From a virus, in IMG/VR virus record IMGVR_UViG_3300012964_000003, positions 1 to 64,000 of that record: a DNA stretch of 64,000 nt. One strand, given 5' to 3'. Shown one piece after another: positions 10,197 to 23,685 of the stretch (position 1 is its first letter; every line of letters begins with the position of its first letter). The position numbers and the translations under genes are program-made. Under the pieces are notes generated by a model that was not told the DNA's origin, did not search any database, and saw nothing but the letters and a program-made list of their open reading frames with translations.

Positions 10197-10563
10197 AGGC
10201 CCGAAGTTGCTCAAAAGCTGCCTCGTCCAGAAGCACAGGGTTCTCCTGCACAACCGGAATGCCAGCTTTACCTAGCCAGTAGTAGACCATGCCGGGAGAC
10301 ATCCCGAGCAGGATGCTCGCTCCGTGCACAGTCATGGGGAACTGGTGGAGCCTCTTGTGCCCAGAAGCACCCTTGACGGTTGTGGTCTTTCCACAAAGTG
10401 AACACACTTCATGGTCAAGGTGCGCATAAGTCCATGTTCCGCCCGGATACCCTGTTTGACCGCATCTTGGGCAAGCGACCTTACCCGAGTGGCCAGGTGT
10501 TGGTGGCCAGCCATATGAGCGCCGCCGAATGTGCAACTCCTTAGCCGTCGGCTCTCTACTCAT
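10174..10563 (-). CDS. zinc-ribbon plus helix-turn-helix DNA-binding protein, excisionase/MerR-like HTH
   Basis: CPRCG...CSLCG zinc ribbon, followed by MTVHGASILLGMSPGMVYYWLGKAGIPVV, an excisionase-type HTH. Confidence 0.5.
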   Translation of the reverse strand: MSREPTAKELHIRRRSYGWPPTPGHSGKVACPRCGQTGYPGGTWTYAHLDHEVCSLCGKTTTVKGASGHKRLHQFPMTVHGASILLGMSPGMVYYWLGKAGIPVVQENPVLLDEAAFEQLRAYGRKKVD

Positions 10564-11006
10564 GGCTGTCCTCTTTTCTTTGGCTTGTAGGCATCGCCCG
10601 CCGGAGCAATCGTCACTCGTCCCTCTGTTGCCTTAGCGCGCATGTAGCGAAGTGGAACGTCCAAGTACCGGTTGTACAGGGTCATAACCATTCTTGCGAA
10701 CTCTGGCCCATGACCCGCTGGGCTGCTTCCCAGACGGCAGTGGATGATGTGGTGCGCCATCTCGTGAATGACGATGCGTGGTTTCATGGAGTACTCGCCA
10801 AAGCGAATTCTTCCAACAAACTCGCACCAAGCTCCCGAGCTGTGCCGGCGAAAACGTACCCTTGGGGCCGTGACATCCCAGTCCTTGGCAATAGCCTCGA
10901 CCAATGCGACAACTTCATCACGAGTCATACTGCGGTTACCCGTCTCGTGCGTGAACAGTGACGCATACTCCCAGTCGTAGACTCGTCTTCTCTGTGAATC
11001 TCTCAT
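10560..11006 (-). CDS. HExxH zinc-metallopeptidase-like protein
   Basis: VIHEMAHHIIH motif. Start moved to MRDSQRRR, which has RBS AGGGAAGGAG. The track's upstream Met is the AUG inside the CUGAUGAGG core of hammerhead-like unit A. Confidence 0.55.
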   Translation of the reverse strand: MRDSQRRRVYDWEYASLFTHETGNRSMTRDEVVALVEAIAKDWDVTAPRVRFRRHSSGAWCEFVGRIRFGEYSMKPRIVIHEMAHHIIHCRLGSSPAGHGPEFARMVMTLYNRYLDVPLRYMRAKATEGRVTIAPAGDAYKPKKRGQP

Positions 11007-11018
11007 GGTTGCTCCTTC

Positions 11019-11092
11019 CCTCAGCTGCCTCATCAGTTCCAGAGAGCTGACCTCTGCAAGACCGAACCCTTGCGGGGGTTCGGTTTCGGCCT
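11019..11092 (-). ncRNA. hammerhead-ribozyme-like element, type II topology, unit A
   Basis: Minus strand reads GGCC-GAAA, then stem III CCGAACCC/GGGUUCGG, then GUC, then stem I with loop GUCAGCU, then CUGAUGA, then GGCAGCUGAGG. The loop UCAGCU pairs with the flank AGCUGA. It is preceded by a 10-bp GC hairpin after the ParB stop. Confidence 0.55.
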
Positions 11093-11131
11093 AAGTGGGG
11101 GCCGCGCGCATCTCGCGGCCCCCACACCCAA

Positions 11132-11971
11132 CTACACCGGCTCAGGATATGGCTCGGGGTTGGCTCCGCCGGGCCGGTAGTGCACGACGTCCATGGCGTA
11201 GCCTTTGCGGAAGGCATTCCAGCACTTGATGGCATACGCCATCATGACGTAGCCGTCGTTGGCCTCGTACTCTGCGCGAGCTGCGTTGGCCGTCAGCACC
11301 CGCCTAAAGGTGGCCGCTGGCGACTTAGGACCACTACCTCCTGTCTCCACAGAGACCCAAAAGGCTTCGGCGTCATCAGGTGATATGCTGTGGAACAAGT
11401 GGTCCGCCAGTGCGAACCAAGTGGCGCTCATGCCATGGAGAAGATGCTCTAGCCGTGCCGCTCTACGAGCAACACGGTCAACCTCCTCCTGGTGCTTGAC
11501 GTAGTAGTCCCACAGCTCCCACTGGGTAAATGGCCTGCTGCGGTGACCCAGCTTCACGCCACGCAGACCGACTTCCCAACAGGCGAACAGCCGCGTGCTT
11601 GAAGCCACAAGAGTGGCATAGTGCACGCCTCGAATCTGCAAGGCGTCCCCGAAGGTTCGCTTCATGCCGGTGTCCATGATGAGCTGGGTATCCGGGTCTA
11701 CGTTGCGAACTACAACACCCCAGACAGAGACGCCAGCCTGGAGAATGGCCATATAGCGATGCTGGCCGTCCAAAATGACGCCATCTGGGGCATGACGGTA
11801 TGGAGACCCATCATTCATCCAATGACCCGCCTTCATGTCGCGTGCCAGAGCGGCTACCCGCTCAACGCGAATGTGGCGGTTGCGCTCATTGAGCTGAAGT
11901 CGAGCCGCCGCCGTCTCCGGCGTGATAAGCTCCAAGTCTATCTGAAGCGCCGGACGCTTTGGTACTGCCAT
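11132..11971 (-). CDS. ParB-like nuclease domain protein
   Basis: N-terminal ParB/Srx motifs: ELITPETAAARLQLNERNRHIRVERVAALARDMKAGHW and VILDGQHR. Confidence 0.75.
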   Translation of the reverse strand: MAVPKRPALQIDLELITPETAAARLQLNERNRHIRVERVAALARDMKAGHWMNDGSPYRHAPDGVILDGQHRYMAILQAGVSVWGVVVRNVDPDTQLIMDTGMKRTFGDALQIRGVHYATLVASSTRLFACWEVGLRGVKLGHRSRPFTQWELWDYYVKHQEEVDRVARRAARLEHLLHGMSATWFALADHLFHSISPDDAEAFWVSVETGGSGPKSPAATFRRVLTANAARAEYEANDGYVMMAYAIKCWNAFRKGYAMDVVHYRPGGANPEPYPEPV

Positions 11972-11980
11972 GAGTTCCTC

Positions 11981-12214
11981 CTATGTGATTTCTGAGTCTT
12001 CCAGTGGCCCATCGGTTACAGGCATGCGCTTACCTGCCTCCTTGTAGGCATTCTGCAATTTACGCCGGACCTTGAGCCACTTCTTGCGTGCTTCCTGCGC
12101 CTCCTTTCGGGCACTTCCTGCTGCCTCTCGTGTCTCCTTTTCGACCTTGATGGCTGCAGAGTAGGCATCTCGAGCATCCTTCTCTGCAGATGACAGTCGC
12201 TCTAGAGAGGCCAT
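11981..12214 (-). CDS. small coiled-coil protein, about 77 aa
   Basis: Start MASLERL, translationally coupled (TGATG) to the upstream small peptide. The longer track ORF has a low-complexity GC-type N-terminus. Confidence 0.45.
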   Translation of the reverse strand: MASLERLSSAEKDARDAYSAAIKVEKETREAAGSARKEAQEARKKWLKVRRKLQNAYKEAGKRMPVTDGPLEDSEIT

Positions 12215-12327
12215 CAGGCTCTCCGCTTGATGCGAGGAAGTGGCTTCAAGAAGGCCACAAGAAGGCACACCGCTCCTATGGTGCCAATCACCGCAGAGAG
12301 CGCACCCATCACTGCCACTATTGGCAT
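12211..12327 (-). CDS. 38-aa hydrophobic peptide, MPIVAVMGALSAVIGTIGAVCLLVAFLKPLPRIKRRA
   Basis: Hand-found. RBS AAGGAG sits 5 nt upstream of the ATG. One predicted TM helix. Its stop overlaps the next start as TGATG. Too short for the ORF track. Confidence 0.35.
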
Positions 12328-12341
12328 AGCATCTCCTTTCT

Positions 12342-12407
12342 TCTAGAGACCTCATCAGCTGGCGTATCACGCCAGGACGCGGACGGAAGTCCGCGTTTCG
12401 GTCTAGA
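12342..12407 (-). ncRNA. hammerhead-ribozyme-like element, type II, with a complete stem II, unit B
   Basis: Minus strand reads UCUAGACC-GAAA, then III CGCGGAC/GUCCGCG with loop UUCC, then GUC, then I CUGGCG/CGCCAG with loop UGAUA, then CUGAUGA, then GGUCUCUAGA. The flanks pair as GGUC/GACC plus UAGA/UCUA, so stem II is about 8 bp with a bulge. Confidence 0.6.
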
Positions 12408-12471
12408 CTATGCTCCAAACAAGGCTCGGATGCTGACGATGTGCTGCCTGGGGGGCCACGTCCAGGTCGCC

Positions 12472-12687
12472 TCATCGGATTTTCCTGAGCGTGATTTCCC
12501 ACTCCGCATCGGCGCGTTCTGGGTGAAACCATCCCCCATCGAGCGTGTTCCCGATGAGAACCGTGAGGTGCTGCACCTCATCGCCGTAGGTATTCGGTGG
12601 GCCACCAAGCACGGCAGCACCACCGAAAGCGTCCACCAGCAGCGGCGTTAGCCTGCGGGCCATCCTGCACGCCTCGCTCATGTCTGT
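12472..12687 (-). CDS. hypothetical protein
   Basis: ORF track, with the start trimmed to an internal Met. Confidence 0.4.
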   Translation of the reverse strand, partial: TDMSEACRMARRLTPLLVDAFGGAAVLGGPPNTYGDEVQHLTVLIGNTLDGGWFHPERADAEWEITLRKIR

Positions 12688-12715
12688 CATCCGGCACCCC
12701 ACTCCCACCAACCTC

Positions 12716-13048
12716 CTAGGGCCATGGGTGCACCTCCCTGTTCTCGTCCAGAAGAATATGGCGTGCTCTGCTTACCGCCAGACGACGTTGCTCTACGCCT
12801 CCAGGTTCGAGTGGCAAGTCCCAGGCATTCAGCATGTCTTGCAGAGCCATCACGACCTGTTGGTGTCGCTCTTGTCGCGGAGTCAGTGGACGCAGAATGG
12901 GCGTGCCAATCCAGCGAAGATGACCGCGCTCGCTCGAGAGCCTCAGTGCAATCTCCGTGGCATCGCGAGGATTGTCAGCCATCACTGTGATTGTGGTGCT
13001 CCAGCTGAACTCCTCAAAACCAACGGGGACCATGTACTTGTTCTTCAC
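12716..13048 (-). CDS. hypothetical protein
   Basis: 110-aa ORF with an upstream RBS-like sequence. Confidence 0.45.
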   Translation of the reverse strand: MKNKYMVPVGFEEFSWSTTITVMADNPRDATEIALRLSSERGHLRWIGTPILRPLTPRQERHQQVVMALQDMLNAWDLPLEPGGVEQRRLAVSRARHILLDENREVHPWP

Positions 13049-13485
13049 TTGCCCCTCCCCTCGCGTTCTGCCGCAACCTCTCTGGCGACAATGACTCGAT
13101 ATTGTCCCACTAGCTTGATGACCTTCTTTCTCTCCAATGGAAACAGTGGAGCTCGTCCTTCTGGACAGGAGAAGTCAAGGCCACGCACTGTCCCAAAGAC
13201 CCGACATGTGAATGGGCGGTCCTCGTATATGGAGCAGCCGTGGGGGGTCTTGAAGACACAAGCGTATAGCATCTCTCCATGGTCCCGAACCACCTGGGCA
13301 GGAATCACCGTTCCTGCAATGGTGCCTTGAGTTAGGAATGTGCAAGTCTTGTGCTTGAGATGCTTGAGATGCCGTTTAGCCCGCCGCCATTCACTTGGGC
13401 TGAATGGAGTTGGGCCGCAGCATTTGTCGCAGTTCTGCTTGCAGGGGACGGAAGGGCATTGCGCGTACAGGTCTTCCAACTCCAT
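13045..13485 (-). CDS. YkgJ-family zinc/iron-chelating Cys-rich protein
   Basis: Start MELEDL with RBS AAAGGAGGTG. CKQNCDKCCGPTPFS matches the CxxxCxxCC motif of YkgJ-type proteins. Confidence 0.55.
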   Translation of the reverse strand: MELEDLYAQCPSVPCKQNCDKCCGPTPFSPSEWRRAKRHLKHLKHKTCTFLTQGTIAGTVIPAQVVRDHGEMLYACVFKTPHGCSIYEDRPFTCRVFGTVRGLDFSCPEGRAPLFPLERKKVIKLVGQYRVIVAREVAAEREGRGK

Positions 13486-13498
13486 CTGGCACCTCCTT

Positions 13499-13562
13499 TC
13501 TGGCGGCCTCATCGGTGTCCGCATCACGGACAGACGCCAGGCTTGCGCCCGGCGTTTCGGCC
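13499..13562 (-). ncRNA. hammerhead-ribozyme-like element, type II, variant core CCGAUGA, unit C
   Basis: The stop codon UAG abuts GCC-GAAA. Stem III is 8 bp with a GCAA tetraloop, then GUC. Stem I is UGUCCG/CGGACA with loop UGAUG. The core has C in place of U4, which may mean reduced activity or inactivity. Flanks pair as GGCC/GGCC. Confidence 0.45.
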
Positions 13563-13756
13563 TATGCCACGCGGTCGATGTGGAATCGAAAGAGAGCACC
13601 GTCCTTCATGGACATGAAGAACTTCGCATTCTCTCTGCCGCCCGATTCCGGACGAGCCTGGTTTCCTTCGATGCCGGTGATGATGGCTCCTCGCTCACCA
13701 AACTTGGTGCCGAGAAGTGAAACCACCTCCTGTGCCATCTGCATAGCGGTGAACGC
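13562..13756 (-). CDS. small hypothetical protein
   Basis: Probable GTG start after AGGAGG. Confidence 0.35.
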   Translation of the reverse strand, partial: AFTAMQMAQEVVSLLGTKFGERGAIITGIEGNQARPESGGRENAKFFMSMKDGALFRFHIDRVA

Positions 13757-13873
13757 CACCGTTATCACCTCCTCTCCATAGGGGTGGACCGCTGCCGCCC
13801 TGTACAGGTGGTGAGGCTGCCACCCGGCGCGACCTCGCGGTCGCACACGGACGACAGCGGCCCATGCTAAGCC

Positions 13874-14089
13874 TCACCTATAGGGCGGAGAATTGTTCTC
13901 GCAGAAGGCTGCCAGTTCTGCTGGCGACTCACCGTCGTCACCCACCTCAACACACCACGGCTTCAGGTCTTCACCGCACAGAGGACAAGAGCCAGTGAAC
14001 TTACTGTCACTGGCACAACCACACTCCGGACAGCGCCACTCTGAAGCGCTACAGGGGACCTTGCTCGGGCAAGGAACGGGTGCGTCCAT
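13874..14089 (-). CDS. Cys-rich zinc-ribbon protein, 71 aa
   Basis: CPECGC and CPLCGE pairs. Confidence 0.45.
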   Translation of the reverse strand: MDAPVPCPSKVPCSASEWRCPECGCASDSKFTGSCPLCGEDLKPWCVEVGDDGESPAELAAFCENNSPPYR

Positions 14090-14092
14090 GGT

Positions 14093-14782
14093 TCACGCCT
14101 CCATCTCTGCACACTTTGGGCCCATGCCGCGATGGATACTAGCTGGCACGGTAAGCTTGCGCCCACACCGCCAGCAGTTGCCGCTCTCGAGGGCATAGGC
14201 GTACCCGAACTTGCCAGGGTCCTCGTCCGAGAGAAGAACATTCAGCGCTTGGATGTATGATTGCATCTCAGGCGTGTTGAACCGTCGCCAGACCTTGACC
14301 TGGTCGCCGAACACGAACGCAAAGGATGCGTAGTTGACCTCGTTGTCCGGGCCGAACAGATACTGAGCCTGCTGGGTTCCCTTGGGGAAGTCGCCCCAGT
14401 GCACCCGCTTGACACGGAGCGTGATGTGGCTGCCGTCAGCCGCCACTACGGTGTAGGTCCCGTCACGCAGCTTGGGCATGACTGGCTCCAGTGCGGGCGG
14501 TAGCTCCTCGACCTTGTGAGTCTCGCGGAGCACCTCCGCACGCATGCAGTTGAGAACGCCCTTGGCCTGGGCTGCGCTGAGACCGGGATTGTTCGTGCGC
14601 AGCACCGCTGCCTTCATGTCCAGCATGAACTCAAAGTCGCCGGTGTAGTTGGCCGCGAACAACTCCGCAGCCGTTTGTAGGTCAGGGCTGTTCTCAATCT
14701 CTTCCGACGTAAACCGGTGGTCTGGGTTGGCTAGGATGAACTTGCGCACCTGGTCAACCGAGTCAGTCAAGAATGCCAACAT
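14093..14782 (-). CDS. hypothetical protein with a C-terminal zinc-ribbon motif resembling DUF6011 of actinobacteriophages
   Basis: C-terminal CWRCGRKLTVPASIHRGMGPKCA. RBS AAGGAGAGGAG. The DUF6011 comparison is from memory. Confidence 0.5.
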   Translation of the reverse strand: MLAFLTDSVDQVRKFILANPDHRFTSEEIENSPDLQTAAELFAANYTGDFEFMLDMKAAVLRTNNPGLSAAQAKGVLNCMRAEVLRETHKVEELPPALEPVMPKLRDGTYTVVAADGSHITLRVKRVHWGDFPKGTQQAQYLFGPDNEVNYASFAFVFGDQVKVWRRFNTPEMQSYIQALNVLLSDEDPGKFGYAYALESGNCWRCGRKLTVPASIHRGMGPKCAEMEA

Positions 14783-14800
14783 GGTTGCTCCTCTCCTTAT

Positions 14801-14866
14801 CGGCCTGCCTCTTCAGGTGTGAGCGGCCACCTCAACACGACGCGGAGCAGGTGCTCCGCGTTTCGG
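14801..14866 (-). ncRNA. hammerhead-ribozyme-like element, type II, core CUGAAGA, unit D
   Basis: UAA abuts CC-GAAA. III is CGCGGAGC/GCUCCGCG with loop ACCU, then GUC. Stem I loop GUGGCCG pairs with flank GGCC. Position N7 is A, which a hammerhead tolerates. Confidence 0.55.
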
Positions 14867-15087
14867 TTATCGATAGAATGGCTTGATATCTACCTCGAAC
14901 TCCGTGCCATCGAGGTCGATGAGGAACTCTGCACCGATGCGTCGGCCAACGATTTCCTCACGTAATGGCCGAACCGTTCCCACAAGCACAAACCGGCCAA
15001 GCAAAAGACGCACTTTCTTCATCCTAAAGGCGAGTTCCTCAGCTATCGCCAAGGCTACCGCCATGTCGTCTTTAGGCATGGCCATCC
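14867..15087 (-). CDS. hypothetical protein
   Basis: Start trimmed to MAMPKDDM, which follows AGGAAGGAGAGG. Confidence 0.4.
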
Positions 15088-15488
15088 TCTCCTTCCTGAG
15101 CTTGATTCTCCTCAGCCCAGTCCCAGATGAGCTTCTGGAGGTCTTCCTCTGTAGCCCATGCACGTGGCGACCAGCCCAACAGAACTACGTAGGTCAGGTC
15201 GTCCGTGCACATGTAGGGCTGGTTGGTGTCCTCGTCCCAACCGCACTTGTATGGTGGTCCCTGAGGCACCGGCACACTTGGGTCTCCTGCCGTCTGGTCG
15301 GCAATGGCATCGTCGCCACAGAGAGGACACTGACCCAGAACATCCTCGCTGGGCCCAATGGGGAACCAGCCACCCAGCTCGCCCTCGAACCGCAGGCCAT
15401 ACTTGGTGCGACAGGTGGGGCATGTGACCTCGCAGATGTCAACGCCCATGTAGCCGGTGGTCATGCCGGGTGGGTAGTTGCTAGGCAT
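15072..15488 (-). CDS. Cys-rich zinc-ribbon hypothetical protein
   Basis: Start MPSNYPP after GGAGAAGGTG. CPTC and CPLCG pairs. Confidence 0.45.
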   Translation of the reverse strand: MPSNYPPGMTTGYMGVDICEVTCPTCRTKYGLRFEGELGGWFPIGPSEDVLGQCPLCGDDAIADQTAGDPSVPVPQGPPYKCGWDEDTNQPYMCTDDLTYVVLLGWSPRAWATEEDLQKLIWDWAEENQAQEGEDGHA

Positions 15489-15804
15489 CAAGGTCACCTT
15501 CTCCGCCGAAGTCCACGCTGACCAGGTCACAGACCTGGTCGCCCTCCACCCAGAATCTACCCAGTTCAGAACCTGTGCTGGGCTCATGCTCTTCTTCCGG
15601 GTCGGCCTGGTTGTTGTAGGACCGGAACATCATTGCTGTGTGACGGGCGAACGCATGCCTGCTGTCCACGACGTCCATAATGAAGCGGTCCTCTTCCTGC
15701 AGATAGACGACGTTGACCGCCGCCATGGGTTTGCCATCGATGAACAAGTGGAATGCTCCGTTGGCTCCATCGACAGGCGCAAACTCAACAACGTGTCTGG
15801 CCAT
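15481..15804 (-). CDS. hypothetical protein
   Basis: Start MARHVVEF after AAGGAGGG. The track's longer ORF begins at a GUG inside stem I of the upstream element. Confidence 0.5.
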   Translation of the reverse strand: MARHVVEFAPVDGANGAFHLFIDGKPMAAVNVVYLQEEDRFIMDVVDSRHAFARHTAMMFRSYNNQADPEEEHEPSTGSELGRFWVEGDQVCDLVSVDFGGEGDLDA

Positions 15805-15819
15805 GACTCCCTCCTTGTA

Positions 15820-15888
15820 GTTGACCTGCCTCATCAGCTGCGCGACGGTCGCTCGCACAGAACCCTACCTTGCGGTAGGGTTTCGGCT
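15820..15888 (-). ncRNA. hammerhead-ribozyme-like element, type II, unit E
   Basis: UGA abuts GCC-GAAA. III is CCCUACC/GGUAGGG with loop GCAA, then GUU. Stem I is 8 bp with loop GCGACCG, then CUGAUGA, then GGCAGGUCAAC. Loop GACC pairs with flank GGUC. Confidence 0.6.
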
Positions 15889-16781
15889 CAGATGTGACAA
15901 TCCACCACCGTGATGACTGTGTCTGGGGGCAAAGAGTCGTACAGCTCTTGGACCGCATGATTCCAAGAATCCTGCTCGACCTCGTTGGTGGAGATACCCC
16001 ACCAACCCATGTCTCCACGGGCTACCCACTTGCCGTCCCTGACGATGGCATAGGGAACTCCGGCGTGCTCAATGGCAGCCGCAACGAATGCCTCACGGCC
16101 ACGCAAATAGGTGTCTGGCGTCTCATCCCAGGACAAAGGGAGCTTGTCCTTGAACGTTGCCTTGTCAAGAGCCTGAACTGCCTCTTGGCCCCCGTACACC
16201 TTGCGTGCAAACTCGACGTTGCTGTTCTCTCCCCTGACCTCTTCCCAAGACTGATACTCAGACAGGTCAAGGTGCCCGAGCACCTGCTCCAGCAAGTCGA
16301 AGTAGCTATTGGCCTTGCGAGCTGCTTCATTGCGCATGGCCTTGAAGTCGATATCCTTCGCCTTGAGCACATCGGCTGTGCCTGGGGAGGCCTCGTTGCC
16401 GAATACTCCCGGAACACCAAGGTGGCCATCAGCCCCTGGCTTCAACATGAAGAAGCCCATCCAGCGCCCGCCCACCTCGTACCAGTCCCACTTGCTATCC
16501 GGGTTGTAGGTCTTGTAGTACCGAATAGTCTTGCCCCAGAGGGCGTCCACAATGCTGGGACCGGGACCTGTGTCTCCATGACCGTTCCAGTCATCGAGAT
16601 GGCGAAGGAGGCCCTCGAGAGAATGCTGAGTGCTCTCTTCCTTGTTGTAGTACTCAGTCATTCTCTGAAGCTCTTCCTCGTCCATGTCGACGGGGTACGG
16701 GTCAACCTCTGTGTTCTCGTTGTAGGGAGCCAGCTGCTCTTCCACATTGCCTCCTATAACAACTACCGGAAAGTGACTCAT
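15888..16781 (-). CDS. hypothetical protein, 297 aa
   Basis: Long ORF, acidic, no motif recognised. Confidence 0.55.
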   Translation of the reverse strand: MSHFPVVVIGGNVEEQLAPYNENTEVDPYPVDMDEEELQRMTEYYNKEESTQHSLEGLLRHLDDWNGHGDTGPGPSIVDALWGKTIRYYKTYNPDSKWDWYEVGGRWMGFFMLKPGADGHLGVPGVFGNEASPGTADVLKAKDIDFKAMRNEAARKANSYFDLLEQVLGHLDLSEYQSWEEVRGENSNVEFARKVYGGQEAVQALDKATFKDKLPLSWDETPDTYLRGREAFVAAAIEHAGVPYAIVRDGKWVARGDMGWWGISTNEVEQDSWNHAVQELYDSLPPDTVITVVDCHI

Positions 16782-16797
16782 GCCAGTCTCCTTTCTT

Positions 16798-16887
16798 GTT
16801 TGACCTGCCTCATCAGTCTGTGGTTGGTCAGGCCACAGAGACGCCCTCAGCCGCGCTGATGGTCCCGCAGCTGGGGGCGTTTCGGCT
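16798..16887 (-). ncRNA. hammerhead-ribozyme-like element, type II, unit F
   Basis: UAA abuts GCC-GAAA. III has a 5-bp closing stem plus an extended hairpin, then GUC. Stem I is UCUGUGG/CCACAGA with loop CCUGACCAA. Loop UGACC pairs with flank GGUCA. Confidence 0.55.
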
Positions 16888-17372
16888 TACGGTTCTCCGA
16901 AGGGCACAGTCCTGCCCCGAACCGCCAGGTCACGGCGTGCCTTGTTCGGGTTGAAGCTCTTGTGAGTCCAGTCTGGCGGACGCTGGCGTGCTCGGTTCCA
17001 GTAGTTGAACGACTTGCCCCAGCGGTTTGGCCCCTCTTCTGGATCTGGAACAATCCAATATCGCACGATGCGCATGCTAGCGTTCGTGAACTTGTGGCCG
17101 TCGCTGGTGAAGTAGTCTCCCTTGACCTCAACAACGGCGAGAACCTGAGGATAGTTGACGTACTCCAGACAGAGATAGACCGTGCCGCAAGCATTGAGAC
17201 CAAGACAGAGACCGCGAACATTCTCGTGCCGCCACACCCCAGGCTTCCAGGGTGAATGGTCGTACATGCTCACGATGGCACCGGTGTCTCGGTCGACCCT
17301 CAATGCCTTCCAAAGATAGCGAGTGCCTGTGTGCTTGCATCTTTGGGTTTCATCATACCGTCGCTTTGTCAT
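16887..17372 (-). CDS. hypothetical protein
   Basis: Start MTKRRYDE after GAGAGGAGGAAG. The track Met at 17465 is the AUG created by a GAAAUG core variant. Confidence 0.5.
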   Translation of the reverse strand: MTKRRYDETQRCKHTGTRYLWKALRVDRDTGAIVSMYDHSPWKPGVWRHENVRGLCLGLNACGTVYLCLEYVNYPQVLAVVEVKGDYFTSDGHKFTNASMRIVRYWIVPDPEEGPNRWGKSFNYWNRARQRPPDWTHKSFNPNKARRDLAVRGRTVPFGEP

Positions 17373-17383
17373 GCTTCCTCCTC

Positions 17384-17470
17384 TCTTTGGCAGCCTCATC
17401 AGACCCGCCATGCCAAGGCGGGTGATGCGCCCGCACCCCAGTCGGGGTTCGGAGCACGGGCGCATTTCGG
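17384..17470 (-). ncRNA. hammerhead-ribozyme-like element, type II, GAAAU variant, unit G
   Basis: UAG overlaps CC-GAAAU. III is an 8-bp closing stem with internal elaboration, then AUC. Stem I is ACCCGCC/GGCGGGU with loop UUGGCAU. Loop UUGGCA pairs with flank UGCCAA (6 bp). Confidence 0.5.
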
Positions 17471-17674
17471 CTAGTCGGCGTCAACCCACTCCATGGTGGT
17501 CGCCAGCAAGTGGTTGTAGTCACCGCTGGTGGCCTCCTTGAGATAGGCGTCTTGCTCTTCATTGGAGACGCCAGCACGATGCATGGCCTGCGTTACTCGG
17601 GCCAAGATGGCGAAGGCGTTACCGTCCTCGCCAACCAGGTCGACGTGTACCTCTGGGTGCCTGATGTCGGCCAT
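17471..17674 (-). CDS. hypothetical protein, 67 aa
   Basis: ORF track. Confidence 0.45.
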   Translation of the reverse strand: MADIRHPEVHVDLVGEDGNAFAILARVTQAMHRAGVSNEEQDAYLKEATSGDYNHLLATTMEWVDAD

Positions 17675-17677
17675 CGG

Positions 17678-18100
17678 TTACCCCTCCTCGTCTGGCAGAA
17701 TATGGTAGGTGATGTCCGGCTCGTCTTCCTCGCCCCAAGCCGGATGGTCCCAGCCCATGCAGAGCAGGTGACGGTTGTAGTTCTTGCTGTGCGCCTTGCG
17801 GTAGGTGTCCTCCGCCGCGTTGGCGCTTTCCGCCTCCACGTGCTCCAGGACCGTCACCTTGCCGCCCTCTTTGGGCGTGGTGCAGATGGCGAACTTGTAG
17901 GTGACGTTCTCTGGCGTGTCACCCAGCACGCGCTTGACGTAGCCGCGCCTGGTCCAGCCGGGCATGCCTTGGGCGTCGTCGAAGAACACCTTGGTGCCCA
18001 GCGCCTGTGGGTGGCATCCGAAGCCAGTCTTGGCATCGACGACGGAGCCATCCTCAAGCTCGACCCGCTTGCCCTCCAGATTGATGTCCTCGATGCTCAT
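17678..18100 (-). CDS. hypothetical protein, 140 aa
   Basis: ORF track. RBS AAAGGAG. Confidence 0.5.
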   Translation of the reverse strand: MSIEDINLEGKRVELEDGSVVDAKTGFGCHPQALGTKVFFDDAQGMPGWTRRGYVKRVLGDTPENVTYKFAICTTPKEGGKVTVLEHVEAESANAAEDTYRKAHSKNYNRHLLCMGWDHPAWGEEDEPDITYHILPDEEG

Positions 18101-18113
18101 TGCATTCTCCTTT

Positions 18114-18193
18114 CACACAGCCTGCCTCATCAGCGGTGGGGTGGCTGGCTCCCACCGGACTCCGCCCGCACATGGCGAGCGGAGTTTCGGCTG
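18114..18193 (-). ncRNA. hammerhead-ribozyme-like element, type II, unit H
   Basis: UAA, then CAGCC-GAAA. III is 10 bp, CUCCGCUCGC/GCGGGCGGAG, then GUC. Stem I is CGGUGGG/CCCACCG with loop AGCCAGCCAC. Loop CAGCC pairs with flank GGCUG. Confidence 0.55.
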
Positions 18194-19087
18194 TTACGCC
18201 ACGTCCTCTTCGGAATAGGCGAACCCTGTGATGACCATGCTCTGGAACTCGCCGTCGGGTGCAGTTGCCGGAGTTACGGCATACCCCTGCTTGAGCAAGA
18301 AGCGATACAGGTGCGCAGCGCGTTCTGCCGTGACCGTCTTGGCTCCGTCCCTGACTGCCTTGTCCCGCGCATGATAGGCATCCCAGTCCTCGTCCTCTCC
18401 GCGCTCAGGCGACGTGAAGGCGATGTCGCCCGCGACAACGATGACCCGACGAACAGGCTTGTTCTCCTGCGACACCGTGATGGCGTCCCGACGGAGAGCG
18501 AATCTGTCGCGCACACGCCGAACCTCGGTGCCCGGAAACTCCTTGACAATCTGGGCTGCCACATGCTTGGCCTGAAGAGTCTCGCCCGTGAGGGGATGAT
18601 TCGGCATCCCCTTGGCACGCTCGGCTGCAGCCTTCTTCGCTTCACGCTCAGCGACACGGTCACGGCGATACTCTAGCCGCGCATTGAGCAGCTCTGGACC
18701 GAAGTTGGCGACCAACTTCTCGTACAGCTCCAAGGCCGCCACATGCATGACCTCACTTTCTGAGTTGCGCCCGATGGATGTCGACTTGTGCCCAGAGTAG
18801 TTGAACACAAGACGGTCCAGCTGCTCTTCCACGAACACAGCCGCGCCATACATGGCGTCCTTGCCCCGCTCAGCATAGACCTCGACGTACTTGAGCATGC
18901 TGCCGAACAAACTGACCATCTCTTGCTCAGCGATGAGGTCGAGCAGATAGTCGACCGTCCAGCTATCAGCAGCATTGGCGTCCATGGCCTTGTCGACCTT
19001 GCCGCGCAAGTCCACCGCCCTGGAGGCATGCTCCTCCCTTGCCCTGGCGATGCTACCCTTGCTCATCTCATACAACGAAATATGCAT
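18194..19087 (-). CDS. hypothetical protein, 297 aa
   Basis: Long ORF. RBS AAAAGGAGAA. Confidence 0.55.
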   Translation of the reverse strand: MHISLYEMSKGSIARAREEHASRAVDLRGKVDKAMDANAADSWTVDYLLDLIAEQEMVSLFGSMLKYVEVYAERGKDAMYGAAVFVEEQLDRLVFNYSGHKSTSIGRNSESEVMHVAALELYEKLVANFGPELLNARLEYRRDRVAEREAKKAAAERAKGMPNHPLTGETLQAKHVAAQIVKEFPGTEVRRVRDRFALRRDAITVSQENKPVRRVIVVAGDIAFTSPERGEDEDWDAYHARDKAVRDGAKTVTAERAAHLYRFLLKQGYAVTPATAPDGEFQSMVITGFAYSEEDVA

Positions 19088-19104
19088 GGCGTTCTCCTTT
19101 TCTT

Positions 19105-19173
19105 GTGGCCTGCCTCATTCAGCTGCGGGCGGCCAGCCCCACAGGACCGGGCGGTGCCGCCCGGTTTCGGCTT
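19105..19173 (-). ncRNA. hammerhead-ribozyme-like element, type II, core with one inserted A (CUGAAUGA), unit I
   Basis: III is CCGGGCG/CGCCCGG with loop GCAC, then GUC. Stem I is 7 bp with loop GCUGGCCG. Loop UGGCC pairs with flank GGCCA. The core insertion may make this copy inactive. Confidence 0.4.
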
Positions 19174-19403
19174 GTTGTCCAGACGTCTTGTTGCCACCTA
19201 CGCTACGCTGCTCTTTGCCGACTTTCGCTCGCTGGCCTACTACTTCTTGCGATGTTCAGCCAGGTCGTCGCGGTGGGAAGTCTTATAGCCGCCCACGCTG
19301 TGCTGCCTTTTGCTGACTCTGGACAATCTAGTAGTTGCTGACGGTCGCCCGTTCGTACGCTCCCCGGCTATGCCGGACGTGTCCCTCGACAGACCGTCAG
19401 CAA

Positions 19404-19736
19404 TCAGCTGTGATGAGCTGCGTCTGGGTTCTTCTCGTAGGCCTCATCGACAGCCTGCTTCAGCCGCTGCCCGAAGTAGTCGGCTCCCCGATAGGAGTCG
19501 TTCGGCTTGTCCGGGTCAATGACCAGGATGTCGCTAGTGCTGAGGTCATCTCCCAAAGGGACGATGCCCAGCAGCTCTCCCTTCTCCGGCTCTGCCTCAT
19601 ACCCACCGCGCGAGTAGCCGGTGGTGGTGTAGCGGAAGCGCGCGACCATGTATGGCCGCCCACCAACGCCATTGCGGTGGTAGTGCAAGTGAAGAATCTC
19701 GAGCTCATCAACAGCATCGAACTTCGGTTTGCCCAT
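19404..19736 (-). CDS. hypothetical protein, 110 aa
   Basis: RBS AGGAGGTG. Confidence 0.5.
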   Translation of the reverse strand: MGKPKFDAVDELEILHLHYHRNGVGGRPYMVARFRYTTTGYSRGGYEAEPEKGELLGIVPLGDDLSTSDILVIDPDKPNDSYRGADYFGQRLKQAVDEAYEKNPDAAHHS

Positions 19737-19749
19737 GATGCACCTCCTG

Positions 19750-19816
19750 GTTGACCTGCCTCATCAGCCGCATGGCGGTCGCCCATGCAGGACCTGGCCG
19801 CGTGGGCCAGGTTTCG
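19750..19816 (-). ncRNA. hammerhead-ribozyme-like element, type II, unit J
   Basis: UAG abuts CC-GAAA. III is CCUGGCC/GGCCAGG, then GUC. Stem I is 8 bp with loop GCGACCG. Flank GGCAGGUCAAC. Confidence 0.6.
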
Positions 19817-19817
19817 G

Positions 19818-20097
19818 CTACGCCTCGGCCAACTCGTCCACGCGTGTGTGGAAGTCATGCCAGGCAGCCGTCTCGTCTGCGAAGTAGTGCCCCCAGCACA
19901 AGCCACCGGTGGCAGAGATGCGCCACGTGGCGTATTGCTGGTAGTGGTTGGGCATGTACCCCAACACAACGCCATCTGTGATTGGTCTCGCGCTCAGTCG
20001 AGACAACGATGATGGCCTTGGGCGTGATGCCCTCCCGCTTCATCTCCTTGTCTACAGAGATGGCGGTGTCGCGCACACGCTCGGTCTCTCTCATGAC
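19818..20097 (-). pseudogene. gene whose coding signal switches reading frame; frameshift, sequencing indel or programmed shift
   Basis: Frame A starts after AGAGGGAGG with MRETERVRDTAISVDKEMKREGITPKAIIVVSTERE and then degrades into Arg/Cys-rich junk. Frame B reads ...RPITDGVVLGYMPNHYQQYATWRISATGGLCWGHYFADETAAWHDFHTRVDELAEA and ends exactly at the next element's GAAA box. Confidence 0.35.
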
Positions 20098-20109
20098 GTG
20101 CCTCCCTCT

Positions 20110-20178
20110 GTTGACCTGCCTCATCAGCACATGGGCGGTCACCCCACGCGGACCCCAGCCTGCGCTGGGGTTTCGGCT
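20110..20178 (-). ncRNA. hammerhead-ribozyme-like element, type II, unit K
   Basis: UGA abuts GCC-GAAA. III is CCCCAGC/GCUGGGG with loop GCAG, then GUC. Stem I is 8 bp with loop GUGACCG pairing flank GGUCA. Core CUGAUGA. Confidence 0.6.
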
Positions 20179-20411
20179 CATACAGGCTTGAATTCCGGGC
20201 AGTTGGCAGGAGAGATTCCTGACCACAGACACTCGGGATGCGTGCCGCCACACACGACCTCATAGTCGGGCATGTCGCCATCTGCATAGTGGGGGCACAC
20301 CTCACATGCCGCCTGGCAGAACTCACACCCAAATGGCCCTGCGGCTGTTCCGCCTGTGTGGTCATTGGCACAGTCATCGATGCACGTTAACGGCCACCTC
20401 TCGTCAGCCAT
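20178..20411 (-). CDS. Cys-rich hypothetical protein, 77 aa
   Basis: Multiple CxxC pairs. Confidence 0.45.
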   Translation of the reverse strand: MADERWPLTCIDDCANDHTGGTAAGPFGCEFCQAACEVCPHYADGDMPDYEVVCGGTHPECLWSGISPANCPEFKPV

Positions 20412-20442
20412 CTTGCACCTCCCTTCTGCTCAAGTTCCCTCC

Positions 20443-20739
20443 CTACAGCTCGCGCAGCTTCATGCCGCGCTCAGCGGCGCACACTGGGCAGAACGCGGCT
20501 GTGGCATGCGAGTTGTGGATGCGACGCTCGTCAGCGCGCGTGGCGCCGTTGATGATGCGCGCAACCTCCCATGGTATGCCTGCCTGCCCTACCGCTGCCA
20601 TGAGCTTGGAACCGTTGCCTGAGCGGTGGCGCGCTACGCGTGCCTCCACGTCGCTGGCCCAGCCCACGTAGTGGCGCGCGTGGGCCAGCGGGTGGTGCAG
20701 GTGGATGATGTAAACTGAGCCTTGCACATCTGTGGCCAT
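20443..20739 (-). CDS. GIY-YIG nuclease domain protein
   Basis: SVYIIHL...HYVGWASDVEARVARHRSG follows the GIY-YIG pattern with a conserved Arg/His/Gly. Confidence 0.6.
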   Translation of the reverse strand: MATDVQGSVYIIHLHHPLAHARHYVGWASDVEARVARHRSGNGSKLMAAVGQAGIPWEVARIINGATRADERRIHNSHATAAFCPVCAAERGMKLREL

Positions 20740-20822
20740 GGGTGCCTCCTACCCTTGGTCTGTCTTACCGGGTCCGGTAAAGCCAAGGAAGCCATCACCG
20801 AGCGGTGGTGGCTCCCCTGGGC

Positions 20823-21053
20823 CTACAGGATGCGAAGCGCGAACTCCTGCGCGGCGCTGTGCAGCGAACGCTCATAGTGGCCGTTGGCACAGCCACAAGC
20901 GTCGCTGTCGAAAAGGTCGCCCTGCGCTGCCTGCACCATCGGGTGGCGCGGCGCGACCCAGGTCACGTGCTCATTGTTCACGGGCACGTACGCCAGCACA
21001 ACCACGTGGTCGCCGGTGGCGGCTGGCTTGGCGTCTATCAGGATGGCTTTCAT
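20823..21053 (-). CDS. hypothetical protein
   Basis: Start MKAILIDAKP after AAGGAGAGAG. Confidence 0.45.
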   Translation of the reverse strand: MKAILIDAKPAATGDHVVVLAYVPVNNEHVTWVAPRHPMVQAAQGDLFDSDACGCANGHYERSLHSAAQEFALRIL

Positions 21054-21067
21054 GGCTCTCTCCTTGT

Positions 21068-21138
21068 GGTGACCTGCCTCTTCAGACCGCACCCGGTCAA
21101 CGGTGCGGTGACCCCGCGTTAGCGGGGTTTCGGCTTGG
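21068..21138 (-). ncRNA. hammerhead-ribozyme-like element, type II, core CUGAAGA, unit L
   Basis: UAG, then CCAAGCC-GAAA. III is CCCCGC/GCGGGG, then GUC. Stem I is 8 bp with loop GUUGACCG pairing flank GGUCA. Confidence 0.55.
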
Positions 21139-21399
21139 CTAGCTCAGGGTGATGACCTCATCATCGGCGGGCACCACGATGGGGCCCTCGGGGCTGTCAA
21201 GGTCATAGAACCGACCTGAGGTCCCTGGGGTACGGCGCACCCCACCAACGGGGATGAAGCTGTCGGCACGGCGATACCAGGCCAAACGGTCAGCGGAGAA
21301 CCAGTCCTTCACGTTCAGGTTCTGCCGCATGAGCTGAACGGCTGGCCCGCCTGCCGAGCCCTCCCAAAGCTGCCTGGCGGTGATGGCTGCGGGATTCAT
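21139..21399 (-). CDS. hypothetical protein, 86 aa; first gene of the leftward operon
   Basis: RBS AAGGAGAA. Confidence 0.45.
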   Translation of the reverse strand: MNPAAITARQLWEGSAGGPAVQLMRQNLNVKDWFSADRLAWYRRADSFIPVGGVRRTPGTSGRFYDLDSPEGPIVVPADDEVITLS

Positions 21400-21412
21400 G
21401 GCGTTCTCCTTG

Positions 21413-21590
21413 TGCTCAGCTGCCTCATCGGTGCCCGCTTGCTGAAGGCGGGCAGACGCGCGCGTTGGTCAACTCGCTCCTGGTTGTCTGGGTTGGTGGT
21501 GCGGCAACCTTTGCTGACGTGGCCTGGTCGCTATGCCAGGGTCTTCAGCGCCAGAGCGTAGAGCGTTGTCCGTGACGCGCGTTTCGGCTT
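21413..21590 (-). ncRNA. hammerhead-ribozyme-like element, type II, with a ~110-nt insertion inside stem III and variant core CCGAUGA, unit M; the promoter-proximal copy
   Basis: AGCC-GAAA, then III closing stem CGCGCGU/ACGCGCG enclosing a multi-hairpin insert, then GUC. Stem I is UGCCCGC/GCGGGCA with loop CUUCAGCAA pairing flank GCUGAG. Confidence 0.4.
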
Positions 21591-22267
21591 AATGTTCAAC
21601 CCAGAGCCTTGCGCTCGCCCTTGTGGTGGGGTCATGGCGTCCTTGTCGGCTCATGCGTGGGTTGCTCTCGCTCTGCGTGCGCATCTGGCGCGCGCCTGTG
21701 TTCTGGCCTGGCTACAGCTCTTCAAACGTGGCGTGCCTGGGGTGGGGCTACCCGCCCATGTGTGGCTTCCTGTGCTAGCGGCGCGCTGGGCGTGCGTGGT
21801 GCTGATGCCGCAGCGCGCTGGGCCTGCCGTGGTGACCCGGTGTGGGGTGTGGCCATGAAGAACTGGTTGACGCGCGAACGCGCGCGAGGCGCGCGGCGCG
21901 TGGCCGGTCAGAACACTCATTCAGCAACTCAGAGTTGGCGGGCCTTGGGGTGGTTGAACCTGAGGCGATGCTGTTCCCCGCAACGCGGGGGCGTTGGGCC
22001 GATGGGCCGCGTGTGAGCAGCGGCGCTCCTGCCTCAGGCCTGACGGTGGCGCGCGGGCGGTACCGGCCCCATGGGGGACCTCACAGACAACGCTGGCGCG
22101 CGCGCGGTGAACGACGGGCCACAACCCTGTTCGTGCCTCAACCCCCGAGCCTTGCGACGCCCGGACCGGGTTGGCCGGTGCCGGTGGGGAGAGCTATGGG
22201 AAGGCGCGATGGTCCTAAGAGCATTATCCCCGTTTTCAACCCAAAAGTAAACCGAAAACGCAAAAGA

Positions 22268-22288
22268 CCTGTCAAAACAGGGCAAATC
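22268..22288 (-). terminator. third copy of the CCTGT-N4-ACAGGG element with a long U-rich tail on the minus strand, in the central control region
   Basis: Minus strand reads CCCUGUUUUGACAGG, then UCUUUUGCGUUUUCGGUUUACUUUUGG. Confidence 0.4.
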
Positions 22289-22602
22289 GTGATGACGGGA
22301 ACGGCGCTCCCCCTGGCGTTGGTTCTTTCTCTTAGGCTCATTTTCAGGAGAGAGAAGAGAGAGGGTTAGGGATAAAGGCAAGGTTGCAGCGGGGGTCTGG
22401 TTGGGCCGGTGGTCAAGTGGGCTTACATGAGCTCTCCGTGGCCAGGTGGGCGTGATTTGGGGGTTGGGGGTGCTTGGTGAATGGGGGTGCCAAGTGGTGG
22501 GTGTTGGGGCTGGTAGCGTGGGCGAAATCCCCCACGGCCTTGTTGGCTCACTTGGTAAAGCCCAAAATCAGGCACGGCTATGTGTTGTTGGCTTGTTGGG
22601 GG

Positions 22603-22868
22603 TAGGGCACTTGACCAACGCACCACATTGCTCAGGCATCAACGCGGTCGCGGCTGCCGTCACCCTGGAACGTGAGCTACTCGCTGAGCTTTACCCCAGC
22701 GCCAACCAAGGCATCAAGTATGACTTGGCCGTTGCGGGAACCAAGCCCACTGACCCGGCGCGCAACCCCCACTACCGAAAGCTGTATGACGACTACCAGC
22801 GCAGCATTGCTGAGGTGGTCGTTCAAACCACCAACCGGCTGCGCGTTCTGATGGCCGAACAGGAATAG
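22603..22868 (+). CDS. possible small protein of about 85 aa, with an alternative start; uncertain
   Basis: The C-terminal half of track ORF 22446..22868 looks protein-like (LERELLAELYPSANQGIKYDLAVAGTKPTDPARNPHYRKLYDDYQRSIAEVVVQTTNRLRVLMAEQE). Its N-terminal half is G-tract sequence. A TTG start after GGGGGTAGGG is possible. Confidence 0.25.
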
Positions 22869-22871
22869 GCC

Positions 22872-23422
22872 ATCTACCAGGGCAAACGAAAAGGCCTGGT
22901 AAATGGGCCATTGTAACCACTTGTAAGGCCATGCAGCAAGAACCAAAAGGCCTGGTAGATTGGCTGTTTTGCGTTTCCGGTCCCTTTCCCTGTGAAAACG
23001 CGAAAGGCCTGGTAGATTGGTTGCAGGCCCATTTTTGCTGGGCTTTGTAAAGCCTTACAATGGGCCATCTACCAGCGCGAATAGAATAGGGGGTTCTACC
23101 AGGGCGAACGTGCAACCAATCTACCAGGGCGAATGCGTTGGGGCGTTAGGCGCGTTCACGAAAAGGCCTGGTAGATGGGTCAAGCGAAAGGCCTGGTAGA
23201 GTGGGGTGTTTTATTAGGCCTGGTAGATGGGCCATTGTAAGCGCGTTTGGGGGCTAGCATCAAACCACCAATAACCAATCTACCAGGGCAAATCGTGTTT
23301 CTGGCCCGCTTCCCTGCGTAAAACCATTGCCCCTGGTAGACTGGCTATGGGGCCATTTTTGCGAGGCTTTACAGCGCTTTACAATGGGCCATTTACCAGG
23401 GCGAACGGAAAGCGCTGGTAGA
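22872..23422. repeat. array of about 14 copies of a 12-bp motif GGCCTGGTAGAT (8 forward, 6 reverse), plus 4 copies of a composite site joined to TGGGCCATTGTAA; iteron-like protein-binding array
   Basis: Read directly. Forward copies near 22893, 22949, 23006, 23165, 23190, 23217, 23329, 23411. Reverse copies near 22872, 23067, 23094, 23119, 23278, 23391. Spacing is irregular and orientation mixed. Confidence 0.8.
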
Positions 23423-23685
23423 TTGGTTGTTGGGCGTAAAGGCTGTTCGAGGCGCGCGGCTGTGGGCTATGGCGCCAGGCCCAAGGCGGGGGCGAGCGCA
23501 GGCAGGGGGAGGCCATGGGCGAGCGCCACGCCGGCAGGCACGAGCGCCACGGTTCCCGCAAACGTTTGCTCCGTTTGCGAGAAAAATTCGTGCTTTACGT
23601 TGCACGAGCGCGGAGTTGCTCCACAGTTTCTGCACAAAACTAAAAGTACACCTGCCACCCACCACATCAAGTGAGGTGATAGTCC

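Follow-up and report, generated by a model that had tools for sequence, protein, structure and literature searches.

Natural hammerhead ribozymes of type II were first described by Perreault et al. (2011, PLoS Comput Biol; PMC3088659), and their consensus joins a stem II of 1-3 base pairs (bp) to a pseudoknot between loop I and the 3' tail. In that work, trimming or mutating the pseudoknot lowered the observed rate constant (kobs) 20- to >100-fold and compensatory mutation restored activity; stem II could be as short as 1-2 bp, and one additional bp in stem II or two in stem I reduced activity. An insertion after A6 gave low activity, and the U4C variant of a viroid is cited there as weak in vitro and sufficient in vivo. 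The same study reported prophages in which multiple hammerheads flank single genes or small gene groups, with the polycistronic RNAs cleaved both in vitro and in Escherichia coli. Here, we analyze a stretch of viral DNA of 64,000 nucleotides (nt) (IMG/VR record IMGVR_UViG_3300012964_000003, positions 1 to 64,000; hereafter the window), in which the minus strand of positions 11019-21590 carries 13 type II hammerhead ribozymes. It is highly probable that this region is the leftward early operon of a tailed phage, with the ribozymes placed at its gene junctions, 11 of them in the pseudoknot form and two (units B and C) in a compact form. The 2011 publication (PMC3088659) already contains the pseudoknot and the short stem II as well as both architectures and the clustering in prophages, and the family is in Rfam; little is added here as discovery, the pseudoknot being the defining tertiary contact of a curated family. 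The array is a good specimen of that known family, whose loop-to-tail pairing has been both described and experimentally tested, and its value lies in the presence of 13 ribozymes in one operon, both architectures, three natural core variants, and a strict layout of stop codon, ribozyme, and ribosome binding site (RBS). A construct of the operon would permit the cleavage rate, product stability, and downstream translation of many natural variants to be compared side by side.

When set beside the type II hammerhead of PMC3088659 and RF02276, the units have the same element order, the same 2-3 bp stem II, the same loop I/tail pseudoknot of at least 4 bp, and the same intergenic location in phages and prophages, often with several in a row. 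Nothing essential differs; this locus has 13 copies in 10.6 kilobases (kb), both forms mixed, core variants in three units, and a stem III insert of 111 nt in one. Hammerheads clustered in the prophages of Agrobacterium tumefaciens, Azorhizobium caulinodans, and Clostridium scindens (PMC3088659, Fig. 3 and S1-S3) flank gene blocks within one polycistronic phage transcript in the same manner. Those transcripts are cut into gene-length pieces in vitro and in E. coli, whereas cleavage is predicted here, and those clusters contain about three ribozymes and flank ardA, whereas the present one contains 13 and its genes are nearly all unknown (DUF6011, CxxCxxCC, and a weak GIY-YIG match). A comparison can also be made with the crystallized pseudoknot hammerhead (Zhan, Wilson, ... 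Lilley, Liu 2024, Nat Commun; PMC11300833; PDB 8YDC). In both, the pseudoknot helix takes the role of helix II beside helix I, and the A:A pair capping the pseudoknot helix of 8YDC has a counterpart, by resemblance only, in a conserved A/A juxtaposition between stem II and the pseudoknot of our units. In 8YDC, however, helix II is wholly replaced and the pseudoknot draws its partner strand from the loop of an extra helix IV attached to helix I, with pistol-like connectivity, whereas the units described here keep a 2-3 bp stem II and use loop I as the partner. With a canonical stem II and no helix IV, they do not belong to the 8YDC type. Extended hammerheads of the Schistosoma and sTRSV types share the catalytic core and the need to hold stems I and II parallel, but their contact is non-Watson-Crick and joins the loops of closed stems I and II, in contrast to the Watson-Crick (WC) pseudoknot and open stem II of the present array.

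The 13 ribozymes, units A to M, were identified by direct reading of the minus strand together with an Rfam scan, and all of them were found where an earlier note, prepared from the letters and open reading frames (ORFs) of the window, had placed them. Eight units reach or exceed the gathering score of RF02276 (Hammerhead_II; 37 bits), with scores of 38.5-50 bits, all on the minus strand within 11019-21135. A permissive scan gave sub-threshold scores for units H (36.4 bits), D (35.4 bits), and B (24.0 bits) and for the 3' half of unit M (22.1 bits), and unit C was missed by Rfam, yet manual parsing revealed the full type II architecture in it. All five of these units have the structural features of a type II hammerhead. 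In a scan of all 64 kb at E <= 2, no hammerhead or other ribozyme family was detected outside 11019-21590. Each unit is built in the same order, beginning with the 5' strand of stem II (usually GCC) and continuing through GAAA, the stem III hairpin, a U and H17 (the cleavage site), the stem I hairpin, CUGANGA, the 3' strand of stem II (GGC), and the tail. On manual parsing, stems I and III of the three-way junction are closed by loops and stem II is open, with the 5' and 3' ends leaving through it. The core (C3 U4 G5 A6 N7 G8 A9, G12 A13 A14, the A15.1-U16.1 pair, and H17) is complete in 10 of the 13 units, the deviants being C and M, both with U4C (CCGAUGA), and I, with one extra nt after A6 (CUGAAUGA). 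H17 is a C in 12 units and a U in the other, giving cleavage triplets of GUC, GUU, or AUC, and self-cleavage to 2',3'-cyclic phosphate and 5'-OH ends is predicted from sequence. G10.1-C11.1 and G10.2-C11.2 are kept in every unit and the third pair of stem II in most. RNAalifold, applied to eight units of compact size, arrived at the type II fold without guidance, 14 of the 19 pairs showing compensatory changes.

In 11 units, a very short stem II is directly followed by a stretch of 3' tail that pairs, and covaries, with the loop of stem I. Here, a stem II of 2-3 bp (GCC/GGC) precedes one unpaired A and then 4-6 nt complementary to the loop (7-10 nt) that closes a stem I of 7-8 bp, giving 4-6 WC pairs; the majority of family members, though not all, are expected to have such a pseudoknot (at least 4 bp) joining loop I to the nt directly 3' of stem II. 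Between loop I and the first 8 nt of a unit's own tail, the longest WC helix reaches 6 bp in two units (A and G), 5 bp in six (F, H, I, K, L, and M), 4 bp in three (D, E, and J), and 2 bp in B and C, with unit D gaining one G-U pair beyond its four WC pairs. When tails were permuted among the 11 units, the observed sum of 54 compared with 34.3 +/- 4.6 and was reached in 0 of 20,000 permutations; when each loop was shuffled with its composition kept, the expectation was 30.1 +/- 2.7, and again 0 of 20,000 reached the observed value. The covariation proposed in the earlier note, which had quoted every loop and flank sequence correctly, survives the control for composition that the note had set as a possible refutation. 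The matched sequences fall into five classes (GGUC(A), GGCC, UGCCAA, GGCUG, and AGCUGA) rather than the four that had been counted, and with one representative per class the sum of 27, against a mean of 16.0, was reached in 1 of 120 orderings. In an alignment built with MAFFT without reference to the pseudoknot (A1), pairing in the six pseudoknot columns amounts to 83%, and changes on both sides affect five of the six pairs, in 13 cells. The covariation score of A1 is 0.588, compared with 0.207 +/- 0.05 in column shuffles (0 of 500), and no register displaced by 1-3 columns scored above 0.17. MAFFT misaligned stem I of units L and I, and the alignment-free tests were used in place of a custom covariance model. 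We also considered whether the pseudoknot classes might keep neighboring ribozymes orthogonal; this was ruled out, as the adjacent units L, K, and J all carry GGUC(A).

A diverged orthologous array in which independent compensatory events could be counted was sought by megablast against INPHARED phages, with no match. Relatives of the 297-amino-acid (aa) gene of the array in IMG/VR and GTDB genomes are only ~30% identical, and the only other contig with DNA available (L127) is 100% identical. Unrelated viral hammerheads were used instead. A pattern scan of IMG/VR (GCCGAAAC-N38-68-CTGATGAGGC) gave matches in at least 120 viral contigs, and a simple parser applied to the matches listed (loci L001-L120), to which the family-wide figures below refer, yielded at least 150 type II hammerheads, 136 non-redundant ones among them. 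In these 136, the helix with a unit's own tail averages 3.25 bp, compared with 2.37 +/- 0.065 for permuted tails and 2.22 for a 5'-flank control; 36 different pseudoknot sequences occur, and the 3' strand of the pseudoknot mostly begins 4 nt after CUGANGA, in the same register as in the window. A subset of 61 hammerheads was picked by architecture (stem I hairpin of 21-26 nt, stem II <=3 bp), not by pairing, and aligned with MAFFT. Its five pseudoknot columns are 78.7% paired (64.2 +/- 1.5 expected), with 58 double-change cells (20.3 +/- 3.7; 0 of 500) and a covariation score of 0.529 (0.261 +/- 0.023; 0 of 500).

Two stereotyped architectures recur across the matches listed. In the pseudoknot type, stem II measures ~3 bp, loop I 7-10 nt, and the stem I hairpin 22-24 nt, whereas the compact type combines a stem II of 4-5 bp (GGCC/GGCC is 4 bp) with a stem I hairpin whose length is exactly 17 nt (6 bp and a pentaloop) and lacks a pseudoknot. 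The pentaloop follows U-N-N-N-R, as in UUAGG, UUAUG, and UGAUA, and the compact type accounts for 39 of 75 non-pseudoknot hammerheads. Units B and C of the window are of this kind. The earlier note was right that both lack loop-flank pairing (the best helix is 2 bp), but they have not reverted to a conventional long stem II; theirs is the compact form with 4-5 bp. The extended stem II of B, which had been taken as continuous, consists of 5 bp, a 2-nt bulge, and 3 bp. Arrays are found elsewhere as well, with nine parsed compact-type hammerheads in 8.5 kb of L012, six Rfam matches in 4.2 kb of L086, and six in L019. The density of the array in the window is not exceptional, although its 13 units are the largest count in the sample, the next among the matches listed being the nine of L012. 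The core variants of the window are also present in unrelated viral contigs, within type II hammerheads that are otherwise intact and followed by an RBS: U4C in L012 (twice), L051, and L053, and CUGAAUGA in L085. These forms may be tolerated or selected as attenuated variants rather than representing decay.

The position of the units relative to genes is equally regular. In every case, an ATG lies 20-25 nt 3' of the ribozyme with an AAGGAG-type Shine-Dalgarno (SD) sequence in between, and GAAA is preceded in most by the upstream stop codon at a distance of 2-7 nt. Among 150 other viral hammerheads in the matches listed, an SD and start codon occur within 8-60 nt in 84%, compared with 16% at random positions, and an upstream ORF stops within 25 nt in 81%, compared with 14%, with 2-3 nt as the commonest distance from the stop to GAAA. 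In units M, K, J, H, G, F, E, D, and C, the end of the gene and the start of the ribozyme are fused without a spacer, the family-conserved A (11.4) and G (11.3) at the 5' edge being also the last bases of the upstream stop (UAA-GCC, UGA-GCC, or UAG-CC). The 13 same-strand units flank single genes or short blocks within a phage genome, delimiting blocks of one to three genes.

For the in vivo cleavage of the transcript, the fate of the products, and the reason for the short stem II, we infer the following from this arrangement. Each ribozyme would cut after H17, converting a polycistronic early transcript into mono- to tricistronic mRNAs, with predicted products for the 12 internal pieces of 345, 959, 360, 646, 987, 734, 584, 979, 1022, 1306, 1157, and 1316 nt. 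The pseudoknot holds stems I and II side by side, supplying the tertiary brace that natural hammerheads require if they are to cleave fast at cellular Mg2+. As stem II is the open stem, the upstream product would retain its stop codon and carry, at its end, the stem III hairpin and a 2',3'-cyclic phosphate, and the downstream product would begin with a 5'-OH and the stem I hairpin. Both strands of the pseudoknot are on the downstream product, which would consequently stay pseudoknotted to its own tail, directly ahead of the RBS. Since only the 2-3 bp of stem II would join the products after cleavage, they should separate immediately, and re-ligation would be disfavored; the brace would be supplied in cis within the 3' product and not by a long, intermolecular-like stem II. 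Each gene block would in this way gain a defined, hairpin-protected 5' end that is independent of the upstream context. Engineered ribozyme insulators in synthetic biology resemble this idea of a defined 5' end.

Several points weigh against the reading of this region as an operon divided by active, pseudoknotted ribozymes. GGUCA is common to five units, and with several units sharing one pseudoknot sequence, the independent covariation events inside the window number only about five. Cleavage is predicted from the letters for a phage known only from metagenome assemblies; units C and M (U4C) and I (extra nt after A6) carry core changes of a kind that lowers activity in vitro; the minimum free energy fold of M retains the hammerhead junction, but with its 111-nt insert in stem III it does not exceed shuffled sequence in stability (z = -0.93); and what purpose such arrays serve in phages has still to be proven in the literature. 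It might be supposed from the sharing of sequences that the loop-tail complementarity is non-structural and reflects the common descent of duplicated units in a G+C-rich background. The sharing of GGUC(A) by five units and AGCUGA by two is compatible with duplication, and for single units the chance of a shuffled loop doing equally well is often 0.03-0.3. This explanation is nonetheless rejected by the permutation, shuffle, and slid-register controls taken jointly, and it does not account for the wide divergence of stems I and III among units with a common pseudoknot sequence, where loop and tail have been kept while the rest drifts. Matched pseudoknot sequences in unrelated viral contigs (36 distinct ones among the matches listed) and published compensatory mutagenesis (PMC3088659) likewise stand behind the pairing, and we give descent and composition next to no credence as its source. 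A separate matter is why stem II is so short. The earlier note held that the 5' strand of stem II, lying in the upstream gene, is limited by coding to about 3 bp, that the pseudoknot evolved as a replacement for a longer helix, and that units with free flanks revert to a normal stem II. In the functional sense, the replacement is a fair description, as the 3' strand runs from the 3-bp stem II via one A into the pseudoknot helix, which can be seen as a continuation of helix II with its other strand supplied by loop I. The proposed cause fares less well. A stop codon does lie 2-7 nt before GAAA in 8 of the 11 pseudoknot units, and among the 136 hammerheads in the matches listed, pseudoknot-type units are slightly nearer to the upstream stop than others (Mann-Whitney p = 0.019). 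However, A (41 nt after a stop), I (231 nt after), and M (no upstream gene) have non-coding 5' flanks and yet keep the 3-bp GCC/GGC, whereas the non-pseudoknot unit C, whose flank had been thought free of coding, abuts the upstream UAG and overlaps it with its GGCC strand. Among the matches listed, both classes sit directly after stop codons and seldom enter sense codons, the difference in distance is small, and the non-pseudoknot class has a 4-bp stem II, not a long helix. Adding one bp to stem II lowers the activity of a pseudoknot-type ribozyme (PMC3088659), which makes the short stem II part of the design and not a restriction. Coding constraint is therefore an unlikely cause, and the short stem II looks like a component of the pseudoknot design itself, in line with the published mutagenesis.

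Another possibility is that the units no longer cleave, or cleave slowly, and serve as transcript stabilizers, binding sites for RNases or proteins, or translational insulators. The core changes in three units would be expected to reduce activity, and other junctions of the operon hold plain, strong hairpins, so structure alone may be useful. On the other hand, 10 units keep all invariant core nt, the A15.1-U16.1 pair, and an allowed H17, and such a core would not persist without selection for catalysis. In addition, unrelated phages have hammerheads that carry U4C or the A6 insertion and are otherwise intact, and related prophage arrays cleave in vitro and in vivo (PMC3088659). We consider a loss of cleavage as the general state of the array very unlikely. 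The reading of the units as active ribozymes can be extended, tentatively, to a graded mRNA-processing program that is independent of host RNases, in which fast canonical pseudoknot units and deliberately weakened ones (C, M, and I) would set different cleavage rates and hence the stoichiometry and lifetimes of the early mRNAs. Under this extension, a stop codon 2-3 nt from GAAA would couple cleavage to translation termination, with the terminating ribosome unfolding stem II and part of stem III, and unit M would be the promoter-proximal unit, weakened by U4C and by its 111-nt stem III insert. That U4C and the A6 insertion recur fits selected attenuation without demonstrating it, and we regard this extension as rather unlikely.

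The individual units, all on the minus strand, are taken here in the direction of transcription with their predicted cleavage sites. Unit M (21415-21588) has the 111-nt stem III insertion and the core CCGAUGA (U4C), with cleavage after C21455; its pseudoknot pairs 21441-21446 with 21415-21420 (UUCAGC/GCUGAG, five WC pairs and one G-U), and the downstream ATG is at 21399. The insert, in the stem III of M (21456-21580), ends in CCAGGAG-N5-UUG, opening a frame of 15 codons that crosses stem I and stops at the UGA of the core; this may be a coincidence, a regulatory domain, or the mark of a disrupted ribozyme, and a consensus scan for a promoter inside the insert found none. Unit L (21070-21134) is canonical, with CUGAAGA, cleavage after 21110, and an ATG at 21053, and pairs 21095-21099 with 21070-21074 (UGACC/GGUCA). 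The same pairing is formed in K (20112-20177) by 20137-20141 and 20112-20116; this canonical unit has the top Rfam score (50 bits), cleavage after 20151, and an ATG at 20094. Unit J (19753-19818), also canonical, is cleaved after 19791 and followed by an ATG at 19736, with 19777-19780 pairing with 19753-19756 (GACC/GGUC). Unit I (19106-19171; cleavage after 19145; ATG 19087) has the core CUGAAUGA, with its one extra nt after A6, a 231-nt non-coding 5' flank, and a pseudoknot of 19131-19135 with 19106-19110 (UGGCC/GGCCA). In the canonical unit H (18118-18191; cleavage after 18158; ATG 18100), loop I is 10 nt long, and 18143-18147 pairs with 18118-18122 (CAGCC/GGCUG).

Unit G (17387-17471) has an AUC triplet and an extended stem III, with cleavage after 17424 and an ATG at 17372, and its 6-bp pseudoknot joins 17411-17416 to 17387-17392 (UUGGCA/UGCCAA). 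An alternative exists in this unit, in which the first 2 nt of the tail UGCCAA extend stem II to 5 bp (GGCUG with CUAGCC, one G-U), and this pairing excludes the 6-bp pseudoknot. Stem III is extended in unit F as well (16801-16886; canonical; cleavage after 16840; ATG 16781), where 16826-16830 pairs with 16801-16805 (UGACC/GGUCA). Unit E (15823-15887; cleavage after 15861; ATG 15804) has a GUU triplet and pairs 15847-15850 with 15823-15826 (GACC/GGUC). Unit D (14801-14867; cleavage after 14839; ATG 14782) has a CUGAAGA core and, in stem I, a bulged U; its stem II is limited to 2 bp by an A.C mismatch at the third position, and its pseudoknot pairs 14825-14829 with 14801-14805 (UGGCC/GGCCG, four WC pairs and one G-U). 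The two compact units have no pseudoknot and a 17-nt stem I hairpin. Unit C (13505-13562; loop UGAUG; cleavage after 13533; ATG 13485) has the core CCGAUGA (U4C) and a 4-bp stem II (GGCC/GGCC), the 5' strand of which overlaps the upstream UAG, and unit B (12342-12407; loop UGAUA; cleavage after 12376; ATG 12327) forms its interrupted stem II, 5 bp and 3 bp on either side of the 2-nt bulge, from UCUAGACC and GGUCU-CU-AGA. Lastly, unit A (11021-11090; cleavage after 11060; ATG 11006) has a canonical core, one G.G mismatch in stem I, and a 6-bp pseudoknot of 11045-11050 with 11021-11026 (UCAGCU/AGCUGA), and its 5' flank is non-coding and contains a 12-bp GC hairpin.

The window is a tailed-phage genome, with terminase, portal, protease, major capsid, and tape-measure genes on the plus strand and, on the minus strand downstream of the array, an SNF2-type helicase and an exonuclease. 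It corresponds to a 70,310-bp metagenome contig (Logan, SRR15532676), and an identical 6.65-kb piece is present in another run. The early operon extends over 10560-21399 on the minus strand and comprises ~28 small genes, nearly all without annotation, which the 13 ribozymes split into the blocks of one to three genes. Pfam and PHROGs searches of the array genes returned nearly all "unknown," the matches being DUF6011, CxxCxxCC, a weak SprT-like domain, a weak GIY-YIG domain, and three PHROGs of unknown function.

Ribozyme-free junctions and spacers of the operon bear strong plain hairpins, all on the minus strand. At 19335-19403, a 12-bp stem closes ~45 nt directly after the stop of a 110-aa gene, and the 231-nt spacer that hosts it folds at z = -2.36; this 69-nt hairpin was considered as a degenerate hammerhead and not counted, as it has CUGACGG and CGAAC instead of the core motifs. 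A 12-bp hairpin and a second hairpin occupy 20745-20815, in the 83-nt gap between a 76-aa and a 98-aa gene, a ~15-bp hairpin precedes a 65-aa gene at 13770-13865, and the 12-bp GC hairpin just 5' of unit A lies at 11095-11125. None of these hairpins is followed by a U tract, and they may be RNase III sites or stabilizers.

Directly upstream of unit M, ~850 nt at 21600-22450 have a G+C content of 64% and no convincing ORF on either strand, and they contain short direct repeats (ACGGTGGCGCGCGGGCGGT twice and GCGGCGCGCTGGGCGTGC twice). This segment could be a long leader or an unrecognized RNA. A consensus scan found sigma-70-like sites on the minus strand only at 22251-22223 and 23263-23234. Farther upstream, the non-coding region at 22860-23440, between the leftward ribozyme operon and the rightward packaging and structural genes, contains at least 13 copies, in both orientations, of the motif CCTGGTAGAT(T/G)GG / CCAATCTACCAGG, some of which lie within larger direct and inverted repeats of 75-79 nt. 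Judged by its repeat pattern, this region looks like a set of iterons or operators, that is, a putative replication origin or repressor-binding array.

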